From positions 177,551-217,748 of the forward strand of contig CAZIMC010000002.1 of the NCBI GenBank assembly GCA_964540475.1: a stretch of DNA of 40,198 nucleotides, in the 5' to 3' direction. This stretch comes from an uncultured Gammaproteobacteria bacterium (GTDB lineage Bacteria > Patescibacteriota > Microgenomatia > UBA8517). The notes beneath the pieces were generated by a model. That model was not told the DNA's origin. It made no database searches and worked only from the letters and a program-made list of their open reading frames with translations. Below, piece after piece: positions 1 to 31,387 of the stretch. Numbering within the stretch: position 1 is the stretch's first letter; every line of letters begins with the position of its first letter. The translations under genes and the position numbers were made by a program.

Positions 1-2019
1 ATTTGGGTGGAGTTTGGATTTTATAACATTACTAAGTTTTTTGTATTTCTCCGGGTTGCCCATTATTTCTTCAGCAAGACTCCTAGTTTGCTTGATTAAA
101 TCAATATCCTGCCAGTTGGCAATTTTTAGCTCAGGAAGTCCGTGCTGGCGGACGCCAAATATCTCTCCCGGACCGCGTAGCTTAAGGTCAAGTTCAGAAA
201 GTTCAAACCCGGAGTGGGTCTTTTCCATTGCCGTGAGTCTCTCCAAAATTTCTCGGCTTTGACTTTCAGTAAATAGTAGGCAATAAGATTTTTTTTCTCC
301 TCTCCCAACTCTGCCTCTTAACTGGTGAAGCTGTGCTAAGCCAAATCTTTCAGCCGCTTCAATTAACATAATTGTTGCATTGGGAATATCAATACCCACC
401 TCAACAACGGGTGTTGCAACCAGAATATCAGTACTTCCCTCTTTAAATTTTTTCAGTACTTTTGTTTTTTCCTCTGATGTTAATTTTCCGTGCAATAGAT
501 CTAAATTTAAATCCGGAAAAACGTTTTTGAGCTCTTCATATTCTTTTTTTGCGGATTTGACCGCCTTCATAGTTTCAACTTCGCTCTCCTCAATTAATGG
601 ACAAACAATAAATGCTTGAGATTTATTTTTCTTAATTTGCTGGGAAATCCAGGAATAGGCCCCGGCGCGTTTGACAGGAGGGACAACCCAGGTTGTGGTC
701 TTTTGGCGGCTTTCAGGCATTTCGTCCAAAATAGAAAGATCAAGGTCTCCATAGAAAGTTAAAGCAATAGTTCGCGGGATTGGGGTTGCTGTCATTGTTA
801 AAACGTGTGGGGCAATCTTTTTCTTACTTAGCTCCTCGAGTGCCATGCGTTGTTTAACACCAAACCGGTGCTGCTCGTCAATCACAACCAACCCGACATT
901 TTTATAAATCTCTTTACTATTTTTCTTACTAAGAAGCGCATGTGTTCCCACAAACACATCAATGGAACCTGCGTCTTGTGATTTAACATCAGAAGTTATA
1001 AGGGAAAGTCTTACTTTAAATTTACTAAATATGTGGGTTAAGGTCTGGTAGTGTTGCTGTGCCAAAATTTGTGTTGGAGCCATAATGATTGTTTGATAAC
1101 CATTAAGAAAGTTAATAAGGGCCGCAATACCTGCAACAATTGTTTTACCAGAGCCCACGTCTCCCTGTAGAAGCCGGTTCATTGGAATACTTTTCCCTAA
1201 GTCATTAAGAATTTCTTTAATAACTTTGGTCTGCGCCGTAGTAAGGATGAATGGCAGAGAGTTTATAAATTTCTGTAGCGCACTTTTGTCAACTTTAAGT
1301 TCTGGTGCCTTTTTGTTTTTTATCCATATCTTTTTGCGCTCCAAGCTTTGAAGATGCAAAAACAAAAGTTCTTCAAAGGCAAGACGCTTTCTGCCCTCCT
1401 CGGCCTCCGTAAGCGTTTGTGGGAAATGCACCATTTTAAGAGCATTTGGAAGGTTCGGAACTTTTAAGCGTTTTAATATTTGATCGGAGAAAACCTCCGG
1501 AGGAGCAATTAGATCCAGAGTTAACTTAATCTTGCTTCTCAGCCATTTAGAAGATATTCCCGCAGTTGACGGATAAACAGGCACAAGGCCTTTTGTGTGA
1601 AGTGGGCTGTTTTCGTTAAATATTATTTCATACTCAGGAGAGATTAGAGCAAGTTTATTGCCAAAAAAATCGGCCTTGCCTGCGAGATTAACTTTTGTTC
1701 CCGGGCGCAAAGTTCTTGCCAGAAAAGGCTGATTAAACCAGATTGCCGGGATATCTTTTGTCTCATCTGAGATACTTGCGAACTGCATAAATTTGCCGGA
1801 CTTTGTATATTGGTTTTTTATTGAATCAACGGTTCCCGATACACTAACCACTTCGCCTGCCCGAACTCTGTTAATTTTGGTTTCAGTTGTAAAATCAAGA
1901 TATCTTGCTGGAACGTGCTTTATTAATTCCTCAATGGTTGAAATACTCAGTTTCTGAAGCTTGCTCTGGTAATATGGCCCGATTTTGGGGATTTTAGAAA
2001 CCTTTTCGTCCAAGTTCAT
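1..2019 (-). CDS. recG: ATP-dependent DNA helicase RecG (3' end runs off the window edge, so absent from the ORF track)
   Basis: Manual translation from ATG at 2019: MNLDEKVSKIPKIGPYYQSKLQKL..., with MNRLLQGDVGSGKT (Walker A), IDEQHRFGV (DExH) and MTATPIPRT; reaches position 1 in frame after 673 codons (...KSKLHPN). Confidence 0.95.
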   Translation of the reverse strand, partial: MNLDEKVSKIPKIGPYYQSKLQKLSISTIEELIKHVPARYLDFTTETKINRVRAGEVVSVSGTVDSIKNQYTKSGKFMQFASISDETKDIPAIWFNQPFLARTLRPGTKVNLAGKADFFGNKLALISPEYEIIFNENSPLHTKGLVPVYPSTAGISSKWLRSKIKLTLDLIAPPEVFSDQILKRLKVPNLPNALKMVHFPQTLTEAEEGRKRLAFEELLFLHLQSLERKKIWIKNKKAPELKVDKSALQKFINSLPFILTTAQTKVIKEILNDLGKSIPMNRLLQGDVGSGKTIVAGIAALINFLNGYQTIIMAPTQILAQQHYQTLTHIFSKFKVRLSLITSDVKSQDAGSIDVFVGTHALLSKKNSKEIYKNVGLVVIDEQHRFGVKQRMALEELSKKKIAPHVLTMTATPIPRTIALTFYGDLDLSILDEMPESRQKTTTWVVPPVKRAGAYSWISQQIKKNKSQAFIVCPLIEESEVETMKAVKSAKKEYEELKNVFPDLNLDLLHGKLTSEEKTKVLKKFKEGSTDILVATPVVEVGIDIPNATIMLIEAAERFGLAQLHQLRGRVGRGEKKSYCLLFTESQSREILERLTAMEKTHSGFELSELDLKLRGPGEIFGVRQHGLPELKIANWQDIDLIKQTRSLAEEIMGNPEKYKKLSNVIKSKLHPN

Positions 2020-27376: not shown

Positions 27377-27471
27377 TGAGCGGCGGACCGGATTTGTGTG
27401 CAAAGCAAACTCTATAATTAGCACTATCAAACCTGGTTCGACGCGAGCTTGTGAGCGGCGGACCGGATTTG
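27377..27471 (-). repeat. 20-bp direct duplication of the tRNA-Gly 3' end flanking a 55-bp insert
   Basis: tgagcggcggaccggatttg at 27377-27396 and 27452-27471. Confidence 0.95.
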
Positions 27472-27525
27472 AACCGGCGACCCCTTCCTTGGCAAGGAAG
27501 TATTCTACCACTGAACTACCGCCGC
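27454..27525 (-). tRNA. tRNA-Gly(GCC)
   Basis: Anticodon arm cttcc-TTGCCAA-ggaag; U discriminator. Confidence 0.95.
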
Positions 27526-27613
27526 ATTGTGTGTATTTTATCAAAAATGACCGCACTTGTCAGTAAGTGGCTTGACACGGCATTGTAAAGATCATAATCT
27601 TGACTATGATTTT

Positions 27614-28669
27614 ATGCAAAACGAAATTCCACTCGGTTTGTCTTACGATGATGTGCTTCTTGTCCCCCAGTACTCGGAAATAAACTCACGGTCAGACGTT
27701 GATCTAACTACAAAAATTACTCCCAAAATTACACTTAAACTGCCTTTAATTAGCATAAATATGAGCGATGTCACCGGGGTTGAAATGGCAATTACTCTTG
27801 GCAAACTTGGGGGCTTGGGGTTTTTACCACGGTTTGAGACCCCCGCCAAGCAAGCCGATATGGTAAGTGCTGTCAAGAAAAAGGGCCACATAGCAGCTGC
27901 TGCGATTGGTTGTCGGGATGGATATAAAGATCGGGCTGAGCAACTGGTTAAAGCGGGTGTTGATATTTTAACAATAGACGTTGCTCACGGAGCAATGAAA
28001 ATGTGTATTGATGCAACATCCTACCTTAAAAATAAACACGGCAAGAGCGTTGAAGTCATAAGCGGAGTAATTGCCACGTACGAAGGCGCAGACGCTTTAT
28101 TTAAGGCAGGCGCAGACAGTGTCCGCGTTGGGGTTGGGCCTGGGACAATCTGTGTTACCCGTATAGTAACCGGTGTGGGAGTTCCGCAAATTACAGCAGT
28201 TCTTCAGGCTGCAAAGGCAGCCAGAAAACATAAAAAAACGATACTTTGCGATGGTGGAACCAAAAACACGGGAGATATTGTTAAGGGATTGGCTGCTGGA
28301 GCATCGGCGGTAGTAATTGGTAGCCAATTTGCAGGCACAGACGAGGCTCCAGGCAAAATAATTGGAATAGACGGGAAAATGTTCAAACAATACAACGCTT
28401 CCACATCCCTCTCTGAAAAGAAGACACACACCAAAAAACTTAAGGATGTGGGGTTGAAATATACAAAATATATCGAAGGAGTTGAAAGTGTTGTTACCTA
28501 CAAAGGCCCTGTGGTAGGAGTTGTTGAACGTATGAAATATGCACTTTCTTCTGGATTAAGTTATTGTGGTGCCAAGAATATTTTAGATCTATGGGAACGA
28601 GCTAAATTTGTTCGTGTGTCTCCTCACGGGGCAAAAGAGAACGGAAGCCACGATGTGGTGGTTGTTTAA
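27614..28669 (+). CDS. IMP dehydrogenase/GMP reductase family protein, no CBS domains
   Basis: [28 protein letters not shown] (catalytic Cys), DGG, EGV; start at ATG 27614. Confidence 0.88.
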
Positions 28670-28672
28670 ATG

Positions 28673-28746
28673 TGCTGAGGATGTGAGTCGAACACATATT
28701 TGACGCTCTTCAGGCGCCCGCCGTGACCACCTTGGCTACCTCAGCT
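28673..28746 (-). tRNA. tRNA-Phe(GAA)
   Basis: Anticodon arm ggcgc-CTGAAGA-gcgtc. Confidence 0.92.
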
Positions 28747-28777
28747 TAAACTTATTATACCATTGCCAGCTTACGTG

Positions 28778-28851
28778 TGGTCGATGTAGGATTCGAACCT
28801 ACGACCTTTCGGATGTAAACCGAACGCTCTAACCAACTGAGCTAATCGACC
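28778..28851 (-). tRNA. tRNA-Val(TAC)
   Basis: Anticodon arm ttcgg-TTTACAT-ccgaa. Confidence 0.95.
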
Positions 28852-28897
28852 TTAATGCGATTGACAGTCTTGAACCTAGAATCCACGTAGGTAAAAA

Positions 28898-29185
28898 CTA
28901 TTTCTCTACTTCCTTTTCGCTTAACTGATTTTCAAAAAAAATGCGATCTTCTTCTTTTTCAAATTCTATCGCAGCCCTAAGGCGACCTCGGGCTTCAGCT
29001 ATATCCATAGCTATTGGGTCTACTCTAAGCCTGTTGGCAATTTTAACATGTTTCGTATATTCTTCGTGTGCTCGCTCGTAGATCACCTTATCCGATGCGT
29101 AGGTGGCTGATTGCATATTATATGCAGCAGCCTCCATTCTGGTAAATAAGTTTTCTTTTGTTTCTCCTATATCCTTTGTTTCCAT
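28898..29185 (-). CDS. 95-aa orphan helical protein inside a tRNA cluster
   Basis: ORF between tRNA-Leu(GAG) and tRNA-Val(TAC); ATG at 29185. Confidence 0.6.
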   Translation of the reverse strand: METKDIGETKENLFTRMEAAAYNMQSATYASDKVIYERAHEEYTKHVKIANRLRVDPIAMDIAEARGRLRAAIEFEKEEDRIFFENQLSEKEVEK

Positions 29186-29221
29186 AAGCACTCAAGAGTG
29201 GACCAGCACGAGCAAAGCGAG

Positions 29222-29303
29222 TGCGGGAGACAGGACTTGAACCTGCACGCCAAAAGGCATAGCCTCCTCAAGACTACGTGTATACCAATTTCACCACTCC
29301 CGC
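29222..29303 (-). tRNA. tRNA-Leu(GAG)
   Basis: Anticodon arm tagtc-TTGAGGA-ggcta; long variable arm. Confidence 0.93.
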
Positions 29304-29377
29304 CTATATAGCAAATGTCTGCAGATAAGTAAACTTACTGCGCAATCTGTATTTTCTGCCCAAACCATAATTGATTG

Positions 29378-29461
29378 TGCAGATGAGAGGACTTGAACCT
29401 CCATGTCTTGTTAGACATACGGCCCTGAACCGTACGCGTCTGCCAGTTCCGCCACATCTGC
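29378..29461 (-). tRNA. tRNA-Leu(CAG)
   Basis: Anticodon arm tacgg-TTCAGGG-ccgta; long variable arm. Confidence 0.94.
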
Positions 29462-29548
29462 AGAAACCATTGTATTATATCAAACTCTGCCCCTTTAAGA
29501 ACAGAATTGTCTACGTCTTGGTTTTTCATTTGGTACAATGACTACTCT

Positions 29549-30967
29549 ATGAGAAAAGTACTTGCCCTAATTCTTTCAATAGCAGCCGTGCTTATAATGG
29601 CACCAACCGCTAACGCGACCCACGATCCCCAGGGGTTTCCAAATAACAAATATGGAATTCATGTTATAGATACGTCGGATATCCAAGAAGCAGCTGAACT
29701 TGTAAATTCAAATGGGGGTGAGTGGGGCTATGTGACTATTGTTATTACTGAAGAAGACAGAACCATAAACAAATGGCAGCAGACTTTCGACGAAATGAGG
29801 AGGCTTAAACTTATACCCATTGTCAGAATTGCAACGAAATCCGAAAACGGAATTTGGCAGAAACCCTCCCTGGATGACATAGATAATTGGGTCAATTTTC
29901 TGAACTCATTAAATTGGGTAATTAAAAATCGCTATGTGATTATTGCAAACGAACCCAACCATGCTAAAGAATGGGGAGGCCAGGTTAATCCTGAGGAATA
30001 CGCCGCTTATTTGAAAACATTTAGCATAAAACTTAAAGAGAAAAACCCTGACTTTTACGTGCTACCTGCAGGGTTTGATGCTTCAGCCCCAACGGCTTAT
30101 ACAAATCATCGCACAGGCGAGCTTTCAATGTTGGATCAGGAAGTATACATGAAACGAATGAAAACGCACGTACCGGATGTTTTCGACCACATTGACGGTT
30201 GGACTTCTCATTCATATCCCAATCCGGCTTTTTCAGGTCCCACCAGTGGAATTGGACGTGGAAGTGTTAAGACATATGAGTGGGAGCTTGAATTATTAAA
30301 GAAGTTAGGAATTAAACACGATTTACCTGTATTTATAACTGAGACAGGTTGGGCGCAAGCGATTGAGGGTTATGAGAAAGGTGTTTCAGAAGAAGAAGTC
30401 GCGCAGAGGCTAAAATATGCGTTTGAGAACGTGTGGAACACTGAGCGCGTGGTGGCAGTTACCCCGTTTATATTAAATTACCCGGCATTTCCTTTTGCTA
30501 ATTTTTCCTGGAAGGATGATAAGGGTGTCCACTACAAAGTATTTGGCAGTATAAAAGACATAAAAAAAATTAAAGGCGAACCAGTGCAAGTTAATGATGG
30601 AGAAATCACAAGCCTATTTCTTTTTCCAGTGCAAATTTCCGGAAAAAAACTTACAGGCTTTGCAGTTGTTAAAAATACGGGACAGTCTATTTGGACTAAG
30701 GATAACATTCAACTTAAAGATCACGACATCGAGTTAAACGTAACAGGAGCAACATTTGACAGTCTAGAACCAGGACAAAGAGGTGCAATTTACTTTGAAG
30801 GTAAAGCACCAGAAACAAGTGGTATATACGTGGTGGGTATTAATTTAAGCAAAGATGGCGAAAAATTCGGTAATCAGTTTGAAGTTAAATTTATTTCCGA
30901 AAACCCCTTCAGGTCTGTTTTGTTTGGTGTATTCGACAAGCTCACAGAGCTTTTTGACTCCAGATAA
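29549..30967 (+). CDS. secreted clan GH-A-like glycoside hydrolase with C-terminal Ig-like domain
   Basis: Signal peptide; IANEPN (acid/base), SHSYP, FITETGW (nucleophile); start at ATG 29549. Confidence 0.75.
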   Translation: MRKVLALILSIAAVLIMAPTANATHDPQGFPNNKYGIHVIDTSDIQEAAELVNSNGGEWGYVTIVITEEDRTINKWQQTFDEMRRLKLIPIVRIATKSENGIWQKPSLDDIDNWVNFLNSLNWVIKNRYVIIANEPNHAKEWGGQVNPEEYAAYLKTFSIKLKEKNPDFYVLPAGFDASAPTAYTNHRTGELSMLDQEVYMKRMKTHVPDVFDHIDGWTSHSYPNPAFSGPTSGIGRGSVKTYEWELELLKKLGIKHDLPVFITETGWAQAIEGYEKGVSEEEVAQRLKYAFENVWNTERVVAVTPFILNYPAFPFANFSWKDDKGVHYKVFGSIKDIKKIKGEPVQVNDGEITSLFLFPVQISGKKLTGFAVVKNTGQSIWTKDNIQLKDHDIELNVTGATFDSLEPGQRGAIYFEGKAPETSGIYVVGINLSKDGEKFGNQFEVKFISENPFRSVLFGVFDKLTELFDSR

Positions 30968-30996
30968 CCACCTAACTTGGCCACCACCCGTGCTCA

Positions 30997-31110
30997 TGGT
31001 AAGCAAAGCTTGGCCAATAAAACTTGGTAAGCAAAGCTTGCTTTTCACAATCGTTCAAAGTAAGCAAAGCTGGGCCATCTATCTTGCAGATGGTAAGGAA
31101 ACCTTGGCCA
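30997..31110. repeat. cluster of REP-like hairpin units TGGTAAG(C/G)AAA(G/C)CTTGGCCA
   Basis: Units at 30997-31016, 31025-31077 (extended, matches 25516-25560) and 31091-31110; compensatory GC/GC to GG/CC stem change. Confidence 0.85.
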
Positions 31111-31179
31111 TTCTCTTCAAGAATGGTAAAATACAGGTGTTTGGGATTTACCCTGAAACTGTAGAAACTGAAGTTTTTC

Positions 31180-31251
31180 GGGCCGTTAGCTCAATGGTAG
31201 AGCATCTCCCTCTTAAGGAGGTGGTTGGAGGTTCGAATCCTCCACGGCTCA
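31180..31251 (+). tRNA. tRNA-Lys(CTT)
   Basis: Anticodon arm tctcc-CTCTTAA-ggagg. Confidence 0.94.
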
Positions 31252-31331
31252 CTCGAAGACTCGTTGTTGTGTCGGGTTCGATATTGTCGGTTACGGTTTA
31301 ATTTGTGCAAACGAATCCTCCACGGCTCACT
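31234..31331 (+). repeat. 20-bp direct duplication of the tRNA-Lys 3' end flanking a 58-bp insert
   Basis: cgaatcctccacggctcact at 31234-31253 and 31312-31331. Confidence 0.95.
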
Positions 31332-31387
31332 TGTTAGATCAAAGCTCCTGCATTTAAACCTTCATAAGTTTATGATATCTTTTGAAC

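Follow-up and report, generated by a model that had tools for sequence, protein, structure and literature searches.

Gene-less 70–80-nt modules carrying a second copy of the tRNA 3' end behind tRNA and tmRNA genes of CPR bacteria

Introduction

When islands and prophages integrate into tRNA or tmRNA genes, tyrosine integrases with a crossover in the T loop duplicate the 3' end of the gene as attL and attR. The CTX phage uses dif through a hairpin that imitates the duplex target. At the RNA level, there are modules that are cut by the enzymes processing tRNA ends, such as mascRNA from the 3' end of MALAT1, the tRNA-pre-miRNAs of murid herpesvirus 68, and the bacterial 3' external transcribed spacers, in which the module is fused to a tRNA-like structure. 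In archaea, related short introns are found at different positions of different tRNAs, and split and permuted tRNA genes also occur.

Here we analysed two inserts behind tRNA-Gly(GCC) and tRNA-Lys(CTT) in a stretch of DNA of 40,198 nucleotides (the window, meaning the whole stretch). They are members of a conserved gene-less family of 70-80-nt modules behind many tRNA and tmRNA genes in a clade of Patescibacteria (CPR), a family that is apparently undescribed so far. The units always lie on the same strand as the host gene and begin right after C74. Read in the tRNA sense, each comprises a linker (often UCGAAGACUC), a segment (IR) that is an imperfect antisense copy of positions 74/72 to 56 of its own tRNA, a cap in which a 4-bp stem, with a loop that mostly begins CAAGUAAGG, stands between AUA and a single A, and finally DR2, an exact second copy of C56 to C74.

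Like att duplications, every unit shows a direct repeat that starts within the T loop and reaches the 3' terminus of the gene, an arrangement that leaves the tRNA intact, and the units share with them the tmRNA target and the existence of empty alleles. They differ in that the 50-63 bp between the repeats contain neither a gene nor an integrase, and in having a spacer that is conserved across deep lineages, contains an antisense copy and a covarying stem, and follows the host phylogeny. With attC sites and the CTX attP the units share their 60-80 nt of length, a predicted imperfect hairpin in which the same positions recur unpaired, a structure that is kept more than the sequence of the stem, and the occurrence of arrays with gain and loss of single units; judged from sequence alone, the hairpin falls within the 57-141 nt of attC sites. 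However, there is no integron integrase, attI or cassette ORF, the stem is target-specific and it is the apical cap that is conserved, the repeat is 19 bp long instead of a 7-bp core, and Xer/dif-like arms are missing.

As in the mascRNA-type modules, a hairpin or look-alike would adjoin the tRNA in one transcript, placed so that RNase P or RNase Z would set its ends, but those modules have neither a repeat of the neighbouring tRNA 3' end nor an antisense clamp, and they are eukaryotic, viral or enterobacterial. Attenuators and T-box leaders also have four segments that pair either 1:2 and 3:4 or 2:3 and 1:4, and for the units too the predicted energies of the two folds lie close together; here, however, the unit lies downstream of a tRNA gene and not in front of an operon, a terminator U-tract is missing, and the tRNA itself supplies two of the four segments. 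Archaeal introns and split tRNAs are similar in their homologous short inserts at the D or T loop and in the complementary segments that join pieces. The hosts of the units are nevertheless bacteria, as their tmRNA shows, the units have no evident motif for a splicing endonuclease, and splicing is not needed because the insert brings its own copy of the tRNA's downstream part.

Results

Two tRNA genes of the window carry homologous inserts

A repeat search found exact 20-nt direct repeats at both genes, at 27377-27396 and 27452-27471 (period 75) for tRNA-Gly(GCC) and at 31234-31253 and 31312-31331 (period 78) for tRNA-Lys(CTT), separated by spacers of 55 and 58 bp. In both tRNAs the repeat starts at C56, immediately 3' of the GGTT of the T arm. 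A preliminary description of this DNA had reported these repeats, their spacing and their shared start in the T loop, and all three were confirmed, except that the biological repeat is the 19 nt from C56 to C74 seen family-wide, the 20th base in the window being a chance extension. The insert is carried by 2 of the 14 tRNAs of the window, and its parts are listed in Table 1.

Table 1. Parts of the Gly and Lys units and their host genes in the window.
Feature	Position	Strand	Basis
tRNA-Gly(GCC), host gene	27453..27525	-	ARAGORN and Rfam (27453/4-27525); Rfam tRNA 69.8 bits
Gly repeat copy 1, last 19 nt of tRNA-Gly(GCC), C56..C74	27453-27471	-	repeat search
Gly linker, tRNA sense ACAAGCUC, immediately past C74	27445..27452	-	sequence; family and CM alignment
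Gly IR GCGUCGAACCAGGUUUG, imperfect antisense of tRNA positions 72..56	27428..27444	-	RNAfold, duplex energies, pairing map
Gly conserved cap: AUA, stem, 19-nt loop, A	27397..27427	-	fold, family covariation, CM alignment
Gly cap stem GUGC / GCAC	27421-27424 / 27398-27401	-	stem covaries across family
Gly repeat copy 2, exact copy of C56..C74	27378..27396	-	sequence, repeat search
tRNA-Lys(CTT), host gene	31180..31252	+	ARAGORN and Rfam (31180-31251/2); sequence
Lys repeat copy 1, last 19 nt of tRNA-Lys(CTT), C56..C74	31234-31252	+	repeat search
Lys linker UCGAAGACUC	31253..31262	+	sequence, family alignment
Lys IR GUUGUUGUGUCGGGUUCG, imperfect antisense of C74..C56, G.U-rich	31263..31280	+	RNAfold, pairing map
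Lys cap: AUA, stem, 19-nt loop, A	31281..31311	+	fold, covariation, CM alignment
Lys cap stem UUGU / GCAA	31284-31287 / 31307-31310	+	fold, covariation, CM alignment
Lys repeat copy 2, exact copy of C56..C74	31312..31330	+	sequence, repeat search, X11 unitig

The two window copies are about 60% alike. In a global alignment their spacers score 39, compared with 15.4 ± 5.6 after shuffling and 13.3 ± 5.8 when random segments of the window are aligned, and this score was reached by 1/5000 in each of the two controls; the local alignment score alone is not significant (731/5000 shuffles reach it). As a stronger, external test, a covariance model (R2) trained only on 21 elements from other genomes, with the window sequences excluded, gave the two inserts 64.9 and 59.8 bits (E ~2e-18 and 8e-17) and found nothing else in the window, the next best match in the 40 kb having 10 bits. 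Together with the global alignment this upholds the homology originally proposed for the two inserts, including against the shuffled control. A 151-nt unitig from a public sequencing run (X11, which may have fed the original assembly) covers 31222-31372 with 0 differences; because it spans the Lys structure unchanged, that structure is real and not an assembly artefact. For the Gly insert, where read coverage is too low, support comes instead from homologous inserts at tRNA-Gly(GCC) in other genomes.

The units match no described family or mobile element

No ORF lies between the repeats of the units. Amongst the 30 window ORFs scanned with Pfam there was no integrase and no tyrosine recombinase, and the only recombinase found, a large serine recombinase at 38259-39872, sits beside a different tRNA 7 kb away. 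Rfam 15, including the small self-cleaving ribozymes and tRNA, matched only the true tRNAs and tmRNA and left the units unmatched even at E up to 1-5 with permissive filters, which sets aside a described RNA family. The tRNA model had no match on the spacers, the phage and plasmid collections had none to the units, and in IMG/VR the cap 17-mer gave only chance matches within unrelated sequence, with no tRNA nearby.

Several other classes were rejected. Neither unit region contains an intrinsic terminator-like site, and the sequences after repeat copy 2 vary across the family, which excludes an intrinsic terminator. A MITE or other non-autonomous transposon does not fit, as the units lack terminal inverted repeats (UCGAAGAC... 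at one end and ...UGCACA at the other do not form any), the 19-bp repeat corresponds to a defined piece of the tRNA, and many near-identical genome copies are absent, the window pair being dissimilar and the five units of genome L014 mutually divergent. An integron cassette array was discarded on the lack of ORFs between units and of a tyrosine recombinase among the 30 window ORFs scanned, and on the junction of GGUU with CRA, which is the T loop and not GTTRRRY. In a CRISPR-like array the spacers would not be homologous to each other, as they are here, with at most two units in tandem (L020).

The same architecture recurs at many tRNA genes and at tmRNA

In Patescibacteria-like sequences, database scans recovered this architecture at the 3' ends of tmRNA and of nine kinds of tRNA, on dozens of independent contigs, so the search for further copies succeeded and the gene-less family anticipated at different isoacceptors extends to many of them, and to tmRNA too. 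A metagenome scan with the cap only gave 21 matches in 20 loci, all of them with the repeat and antisense architecture, and in 18 of the 20 the upstream gene could be recognised as a tRNA or tmRNA. With covariance model R1 there were 38 matches with E < 1e-4, from 23 sources.

C74 was encoded in 85/85 distinct tRNA genes, and CCA in only 12. Repeat copy 2 differs from copy 1 at about 1% of positions and follows lineage-specific changes in the T stem of tRNA-Gly (CCGGU, CCGCU, CCCUU, CCCGU), while the IR is mismatched at about 25%. The linker motif of the Lys unit is also present in Leu, Arg, Ser and tmRNA units elsewhere. To the left of repeat copy 2 stands TGCACA or a variant (TGCAUA, TGCAAA, TGCAGAG), and to the left of copy 1 NGGUU. 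Mirror-image partial duplications of tRNA 5' ends, which stop in the D loop (positions 1-21), share motifs with the 3' units. Two units lie behind dead tRNA fragments (L009 and L021), and foreign-allele copies were found at L016 and L021.

The antisense segment is predicted to pair with its own tRNA end

IR duplexes are stronger with the cognate partner than with non-cognate ones (mean -13.9 vs -8.2 kcal/mol; -15.6 vs -6.6 for the Gly and -16.5 vs -8.9 for the Lys unit), and in 13/26 no non-cognate partner matches the cognate duplex. RNAfold gives 14 pairs between the Gly IR and repeat copy 2. Positions 56-59 of the tRNA are paired with the IR in 24/24, and the IR follows the T-loop variants (CAAA/UUUG, CGAA/UUCG, CAAU/AUUG, CAAC/GUUG, CGAU/AUCG). 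In the covariation analysis 89.9% of cells were paired, compared with 80.6% in shuffles (0/500 reach the observed value) and 30-54% in slid controls, and cells with a double change numbered 33 vs 8.7 in shuffles. The outer pair of the small stem can be GC, AU, UA or CG, with several types within genome L014. On the tRNA-sense strand G.U is preferred over A.C, 21 to 10, and hairpin mismatches recur at positions 60, 63-65 and 69. Some old tmRNA units have a weak helix (-3 kcal/mol), and fold z-scores average a modest -1.2. A single DNA strand that folds could explain the covariation just as well.

Units are conserved within lineages and variable between strains

Spacers linked to tmRNA follow the tmRNA phylogeny, with spacer identity at least equal to tmRNA identity in 5/6 pairs (for instance 95.2 vs 83.9, 75.8 vs 63.4 and 69.8 vs 63.1; the single exception is 74.6 vs 77.7), and in distant pairs the flanks on the downstream side show about 50% identity and are unalignable. 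This pattern suggests that the spacers are under purifying selection with vertical descent. With compensatory changes and conservation above its flanks, the unit has the general features of a selected structured element.

Whole units have also been gained or lost between strains that are 99.5-99.7% identical, so the empty-site alleles sought earlier do exist amongst near-identical strains. Empty, single-unit and double-unit alleles occur within one population, two tandem units being the maximum found, and orthologous tRNAs have or lack a unit depending on the lineage. No recent insertion was seen, and the single polymorphic site represents a loss, since three lineages have the Arg(TCT) unit.

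Discussion

The reading we favour, tentatively and with somewhat less than even confidence, is that the unit is a selected, co-transcribed 3'-trailer RNA module able to swap strands with its tRNA. It would be transcribed together with the tRNA and act as RNA; the Gly unit of the window lies between tRNA-Gly and tRNA-Arg(TCT), which begins 11 nt beyond repeat copy 2 (27366), past the only promoter-like site and without a terminator. The tRNA body, DR1 (repeat copy 1), IR and DR2 may work as four segments that exchange strands between two alternative folds. In fold A, DR1 would close the normal cloverleaf, followed by an IR:DR2 hairpin resembling the acceptor/T-arm helix; in fold B, DR2 would close the tRNA body and the IR would clamp DR1. 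Their predicted energies are near (mean A-B +1.8 kcal/mol, B lower in 14/19). Through this look-alike, strand-swapping hairpin the module might affect how the precursor of its own tRNA or tmRNA is matured, quality-controlled or protected, with the conserved cap as the putative point of contact for a partner, either protein or RNA. DR2 could stay identical because it has to fit the tRNA body; alternatively, whole units that often come and go by way of the repeats may homogenise it, with selection acting on the tRNA. The family must at one time have spread between tRNA genes through some insertion process.

Several observations weaken this trailer reading. In one metatranscriptome related tmRNAs stop at the mature 3' end. 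The patchy presence, as on the tRNAs of the window, is unlike a core maturation device and makes the module look too dispensable, a hairpin alone requires no exact copy of the tRNA end, and a repeat from the T loop to the gene end at tRNA and tmRNA targets is a classic mark of site-specific integration. The units behind dead tRNA fragments, the weak helix of some old tmRNA units and the modest fold z-scores count in the same direction.

The integration marks lead to the main competitor, a less probable though live one: a non-autonomous integrative element, devoid of genes, that would function in the form of a folded single strand. Its IR:DR hairpin would mimic the double-stranded 3' end of the tRNA gene it targets, or base-pair with it, a recombinase acting in trans would read cap and linker, recombination would leave flanks with the 19-bp repeat, and the sequence would be maintained by selection for mobility, akin to integron attC and the CTX phage attP. 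Such an element would account for a repeat running exactly from C56 to the functional gene end at C74, for the many tRNA targets plus tmRNA, for an IR covering exactly the repeat, and for the imperfect hairpin with its recurrent mismatches and covarying stem; the allele series within one population, the foreign-allele copies and the mirror-image 5' duplications with common motifs also agree with it. However, no recombinase is linked to the units, a single genome (L014) contains old, divergent copies, the only polymorphic site reflects a loss, and the spacers follow the host phylogeny. The cap 17-mer and the phage and plasmid collections gave no support either, and TGCACA to the left of repeat copy 2 is no mimic of the T-stem half-site.

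Rather improbable, in our view, is that the unit makes a trans-acting small RNA. As a decoy it would offer the exact 3' end of the tRNA to an agent attacking or hijacking tRNA 3' ends; as a spare part, its C56..C74 fragment would replace a 3' end lost by T-loop cleavage, the 5'-side copies of positions 1-21 being spares for cuts in the D loop. This would explain why DR2 is exact over the functional piece and tracks T-stem changes, why the mirror copies terminate in the D loop, why units persist behind dead tRNA fragments, and a patchy, strain-variable presence typical of conflict systems. Against it, the nuclease, the ligase, the attacker and a release of DR2 with its 5' end at C56 are all conjectural, and concerted evolution via gain and loss of units explains the identity without a function for DR2.

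The preliminary description had offered minimal integrative elements or collapsed att scars, with an RNA-level or tandem-duplication origin as a further option. The gene-less family stands, and an origin or role at the RNA level fits at least as well. Inert remnants without function or mobility, whether collapsed attL/attR island scars or decayed tandem tRNA duplicates, are very unlikely. Partial tRNA duplications by integrating elements are common (PMC9897764), the unit is near one tRNA in length, and its cap loop UGCCAAGUAAG resembles the anticodon arm of tRNA-Gly(GCC), UGCCAAGGAAG, over 11 nt, a score reached by 99/10000 shuffles and uncorrected for the 24 tRNA species compared. Conservation and covariation nevertheless count strongly against this view. 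An island with integrase and cargo between or beside the repeats does not agree with spacers of this size and no ORF; collapsed scars are unlikely given the absence of a linked integrase and a TGCACA-type sequence, not NGGUU, as the element-side half-site, and half of each spacer is antisense to its own tRNA 3' end, with a covarying small stem. Because the tmRNA-linked spacers are conserved and follow the tmRNA phylogeny beside unalignable flanks, neutral decay of recombinase-less remnants is unfit as well. The same architecture of 50-63 nt recurs at more than 10 targets with tRNA-specific antisense segments and compensatory changes, and copy 2 is nearly exact where the IR is not. Simple tandem duplication of a tRNA, or a pseudogene derived from it, fails because the spacers resemble one another and not their own tRNA bodies (positions 1-55; global alignment, p = 0.07 for the L014-type Gly and 0.44 for the window Gly).

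Chance similarity or an assembly artefact, for which only the local alignment score of the window pair could be cited, is already refuted by the leave-out model (E ~1e-17), by the unitig covering the entire Lys unit, and by dozens of independent contigs from different studies with the same architecture.

Two homologous units in the window

The preliminary description had reported duplicated 3′ ends at tRNA-Gly(GCC) and tRNA-Lys(CTT), and both proved to be exact 20-nt copies, starting at C56, immediately 3′ of the T-arm GGUU, and separated by spacers of 55 nt (Gly) and 58 nt (Lys). The likeness of the two spacers also held against controls: among 5000 shuffles, and again among 5000 random window segments, a single one beat the score of their global alignment (z about 4.2-4.4). 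Taken by itself, the score of the local alignment was unremarkable. None of the remaining 12 window tRNAs has a duplicated 3′ end, and the window holds no further copy of the spacer. The Lys unit is covered by a 151-nt unitig from a sludge metagenome with 0 differences. A 148-aa ORF crossing tRNA-Lys and most of its unit is almost certainly no gene.

The closest homologues of the organism's GMP reductase are ~70% identical, with named matches from Woesebacteria, Saccharimonadales and the 'Patescibacteria group'. On the basis of protein matches, a single named MAG (L004) and the common tRNA-cluster order, we assign the organism to the Patescibacteria (CPR). This GMP reductase had no exact match on record, a scan of GTDB genomes for close relatives gave none, and the named Woesebacteria loci reached via its homologues have a different gene order and no units.

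A family of units behind tRNA and tmRNA genes

Scanning GTDB genomes for either window repeat duplicated at a distance of 42-72 nt gave two additional tRNA-Gly(GCC) cases with clearly homologous spacers (L001 and L004; L001-L025 are fetched loci of other genomes or metagenome contigs). A scan of JGI metagenomes, with a pattern made only of the apical part of the spacer, TGCAMA and CRAWYCC, gave 21 matches in 20 loci. Although neither was in the pattern, the upstream repeat copy and the antisense architecture were present in all 21 matches, and a recognisable tRNA or tmRNA gene, also absent from the pattern, lay upstream in 18 of the 20 loci, the other two having a decayed gene (L009) or being cut at the contig end (L017). 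When all tRNAs of the fetched loci were screened for 3′-end duplication, extra, more divergent units were found. The further copies that the preliminary description had proposed to look for thus exist in other genomes, with Gly(GCC), Lys(CTT), Leu(CAG), Leu(GAG), Leu(TAG), Thr(UGU), Ser(GGA), Ser(CGA) and Arg(UCU) as tRNA hosts and tmRNA as host in six loci. On the contig L014 units follow five of ten tRNAs, and L020 carries two in tandem; since loci were found with family-derived patterns, prevalence figures are biased.

A covariance model of the unit gave 38 matches (E < 1e-4) in 23 sources. A second model, from which the window sequences had been left out, recovered both window units, at 64.9 and 59.8 bits, and no others, the rest of the window scoring at most 10 bits with filters off. 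The tRNA-Phe(GAA) of L001 has the same C56..C74 repeat, with a spacer of only 31 nt and no conserved cap, and is a shortened or different variant. The tRNA-Tyr of an unrelated MAG (L002), which is followed, after a spacer of 58 nt, by a 31-nt duplicate of its T-arm and 3′ end, was rejected as a member, being an ordinary partial tandem duplication because the spacer repeats part of the tRNA D arm.

Coordinates of features in the window and in the fetched loci (L handles)
Feature	Position	Strand	Remarks
Repeat pair, tRNA-Gly(GCC)	27377-27396 / 27452-27471	-	one copy is the tRNA 3′ end
Repeat pair, tRNA-Lys(CTT)	31234-31253 / 31312-31331	+	one copy is the tRNA 3′ end
148-aa ORF	30855-31301	+
Sludge unitig	31222-31372
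tRNA-Gly(UCC)	38253-38326	+
Large serine recombinase ORF	38259-39872	-	537 aa; Resolvase and Zn_ribbon_recom domains
tRNA-Phe(GAA) variant	L001:5997-6121	-
tRNA-Tyr duplication	L002:4540-4712	+	not this family
6S RNA-like match	L007:534-683	+
Hammerhead-like match	L009:201-240	-
Cap example	L014:10152-10162
Unit with mixed T-stems	L016:1086-1230	-
5′ mirror unit	L014:9265-9385		two 60-nt units
5′ mirror unit	L018:9016-9075
5′ mirror unit	L010:2397-2487
5′ mirror unit	L013:3197-3298
5′ mirror unit	L020:103-195
5′ mirror unit	L021:2531-2623
5′ mirror unit	L001:4093-4173
5′ mirror unit	L016:984-1046
5′ mirror unit	L018:1880-1938
tRNA-Arg(UCU) body copy	L016:821-983	-
tRNA-Arg(UCU) body copy	L013:1952-2120	+
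tRNA-Arg(UCU) body copy	L021:2164-2363	-

Anatomy and pairing of the unit

Every unit begins, in tRNA sense, immediately 3′ of C74, with an 8-13-nt linker (in many cases UCGAAGACUC or UCGCAGACUC), followed by a 17-19-nt imperfect antisense copy of the host's 3′ end (the antisense segment), AUA, a cap made of a 4-bp stem (GUGC...GCAC) and a 14-19-nt loop usually opening with CAAGUAAGG, and finally A and an exact second C56..C74 (copy 2, copy 1 being the tRNA's own). The repeat is 19 nt long family-wide, longer matches being chance extensions. C74 is the encoded gene end in the window and loci: N73-C74 is encoded in all 85 distinct tRNA genes (window and L001-L025), the full CCA in 12 of them, and position 75 is mostly A or U. 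The pattern of N73-C74 without CCA suggests a 3′ maturation that leaves or needs C74.

With its own tRNA 3′ end the antisense segment forms a duplex of -13.9 kcal/mol on average, against -8.2 with other tRNA species, and for 13 of the 26 units none of the other species pairs as well as the host's own end. All 24 distinct units show pairing at positions 56-59, with the antisense segment tracking each T-loop variant. Pairing also prevails at positions 61-62, 66-68 and 70-72, and positions 60, 63-65 and 69 are mostly wobbles or mismatches, which recur at the same positions in different hosts. The mismatches are mainly pyrimidine against pyrimidine (U opposite C, 31; C opposite U, 14; U.U, 12), and the tRNA-sense strand shows 21 G.U against 10 A.C. 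Where the perfect complement needs G or A, the antisense segment carries U or C. A pyrimidine-motif triplex was rejected as the source of this odd pattern, its base rules not fitting.

In the covariance-model alignment 89.9% of cells pair, compared with 80.6% in shuffles (0 of 500 reach it), double-change cells number 33 against 8.7 in shuffles, and slid registers give 30-54% pairing. Because indels shift its register, pairing in the lower helix was assessed from duplex energies and pair maps, not from a column alignment. In the small stem the outer pair varies between GC, AU, UA and CG, with differing types within one genome, which argues for base pairing within a single strand and not for a palindromic protein site. 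Both the antisense segment and the small stem are real.

The sequence UGCCAAGUAAG in the cap loop of most units, for example in L014, matches the anticodon loop and 3′ stem of tRNA-Gly(GCC), UGCCAAGGAAG, at 10 of 11 positions, and this tRNA is both the best-matching species for the cap loop and the commonest unit host. The likeness, whose score was reached by 99 of 10000 shuffles (uncorrected), may hint that the family originated at tRNA-Gly.

Conservation, gain and loss

For four tmRNA loci we compared the identity of the spacer with that of the tmRNA itself. The spacer identities reproduce the tmRNA tree, and in five of the six pairs the spacer is at least as conserved as the tmRNA (95.2 versus 83.9%, 75.8 versus 63.4%, 76.1 versus 65.2%, 69.8 versus 63.1% and 75.0 versus 72.0%), the sole exception being a pair with 74.6 versus 77.7%. 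The 300 nt downstream of these units show ~50% identity in distant pairs. This congruence, together with the conservation of the spacer over its flanks, indicates great age, vertical descent and purifying selection for the tmRNA units.

Whole units appear and vanish quickly. A precise 71-nt unit at tRNA-Arg(UCU) distinguishes L014 from L018, although their sequences are 99.5-99.7% identical, and L020 has two Gly units against one each in L014 and L018. The empty Arg(UCU) form, seen in contigs of two groundwater runs with 19 ambiguous bases at the joint, represents a loss, since Arg(UCU) units are present in three lineages (L014, L016 and L021); among the loci compared we saw no recent de novo insertion. 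Copy 2 differs from copy 1 at ~1% of positions, compared with ~25% mismatch in the antisense segment, and repeat-mediated gain and loss of units can preserve the identity of copy 2 with the tRNA end that is under selection. In one L016 unit copy 2 has the T-stem CCCUU, with the tRNA and antisense segment of the CCGCU type, which suggests recombination between alleles inside the conserved cap.

Possible nature of the units

Units always lie on the strand of their tRNA, frequently in tRNA clusters, and in the window a promoter-like site lies just upstream of tRNA-Gly, a terminator is absent and tRNA-Arg(UCU) starts 11 nt past the Gly unit; the unit is thus predicted to belong to the precursor RNA. 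We tentatively favour an RNA-level module, which accounts for strand and position, for an antisense segment specific to its tRNA, for a helix that is weak yet conserved, for the conservation of the cap and for purifying selection. The tRNA body, copy 1, antisense segment and copy 2 would form a four-segment system with two alternative folds: in fold A the cloverleaf would be closed by copy 1 and the antisense segment would pair with copy 2 as a hairpin, and in fold B copy 2 would close the tRNA body, with copy 1 clamped by the antisense segment. According to ViennaRNA the two folds lie within a few kcal/mol, B being lower in 14 of 19 cases (mean difference 1.8 kcal/mol), and the minimum free energy favours fold A for the Gly unit and fold B for the Lys unit. 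Such a module might serve as processing signal, quality control, regulator or decoy.

Less probable, but to be taken seriously, is a gene-less integrative element folding as a single strand, whose hairpin would serve to locate the end of the tRNA gene or to imitate it. This reading gives the best account of where the repeat begins and ends, of tmRNA as a target, of how units first spread among tRNAs and of the variation between alleles, but neither a recombinase, nor a recent insertion, nor an incongruent phylogeny stands behind it. Pfam scans of 30 window ORFs gave housekeeping genes and, as sole recombinase, a large serine recombinase 7 kb away, whose ORF converges on tRNA-Gly(UCC) with an overlap of ~68 nt; this tRNA alone among those of the window encodes CCA, and the site is possibly the edge of an integrated element running off the window. 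GenBank phages and PLSDB plasmids gave no match, nor did IMG/VR for the full cap pattern, and the cap 17-mer gave five chance matches in IMG/VR, within unrelated sequence and in no case with a tRNA nearby.

A decoy or spare-part small RNA is improbable, although it is made attractive by copy 2 reproducing C56..C74 exactly and by the mirror copies on the 5′ side. The collapsed integrase scars of the preliminary description, or decayed tandem tRNA copies, would be inert and are hard to reconcile with a tRNA-specific antisense segment, a covarying stem, spacer conservation under purifying selection and vertical descent.

A rather doubtful proposal, with two versions, is that the units and the mirror-image 5′ copies of tRNA positions 1-21 together act on the ends of tRNA and tmRNA as one system guided by nucleic acid. 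In the first, the antisense segment of a gene-less hairpin element would base-pair with the tRNA gene 3′ end to choose the target, and the insertion duplication would have the length of the guide duplex; in the second, exact tRNA end fragments would be supplied as spare parts or decoys. We know of no described bacterial precedent for either version.

We rejected the units as terminators or promoters, as hammerhead or other known ribozymes (no Rfam covariance model matches them), as a tiny ORF from the NUG of UGCACA (the downstream frame is not conserved) and as an aminoacylatable minihelix (G3.U70 is lost in tmRNA units, and A73/C74 are paired in many units). Rfam gave no match on the units even at permissive thresholds. 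Sub-threshold Rfam matches were a type III hammerhead (28.7 bits, E 0.014) ~40 nt downstream of the L009 unit on the other strand, and a 6S RNA (30.7 bits) upstream of tRNA-Thr in L007. RNA runs with word matches to the tmRNA or tRNA-Gly loci contained only related tmRNAs or other bacteria's tRNAs; in one ambiguous run labelled 'RNA?' a contig covers a related unit at low depth.

In the literature we found no description of such units. If the unit works as RNA, the CPR bacteria, a little-known group, would have a tRNA-linked structured element of a new class, which copies its host's 3′ end and clamps it with an antisense strand; its conservation at tmRNA, at or above that of tmRNA in most comparisons, would point to a new step in making, checking or protecting tRNAs in organisms with reduced genomes. 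A DNA element would be the smallest known integrative element, with the choice of target written in its own hairpin. On either reading the units create tRNA fragments, which ordinarily arise by integration (PMC9897764), and can mislead searches for genomic islands; the covariance model is ready for surveying CPR genomes.

Related duplications

On the 5′ side of tRNA-Gly(GCC), Arg(UCU) and Gly(UCC) there is a mirror-image family, in which positions 1-20/21 of the tRNA, up to a point in the D loop, are duplicated upstream of the gene, and a 40-80-nt spacer follows that opens with a small hairpin, which covaries (AAGC-GAA-GCUU or AAGCCGCUUCGCGUCUU), and GCUUGGCCA. The linker motif of the 3′ units, UCGCAGACUCGAAG, recurs in some of these spacers, and L014 has two such units in tandem where L018 has one. 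At three loci tRNA-Arg(UCU) is followed, after a spacer of 35-40 nt (73 nt in L021), by a second copy of tRNA positions ~21-74. The spacer in L013 and L016 carries an antisense copy of the second copy's start and the motif CUUCUC...CUCGAAG, and the L021 fragment is a foreign allele with its own intact 3′ unit.
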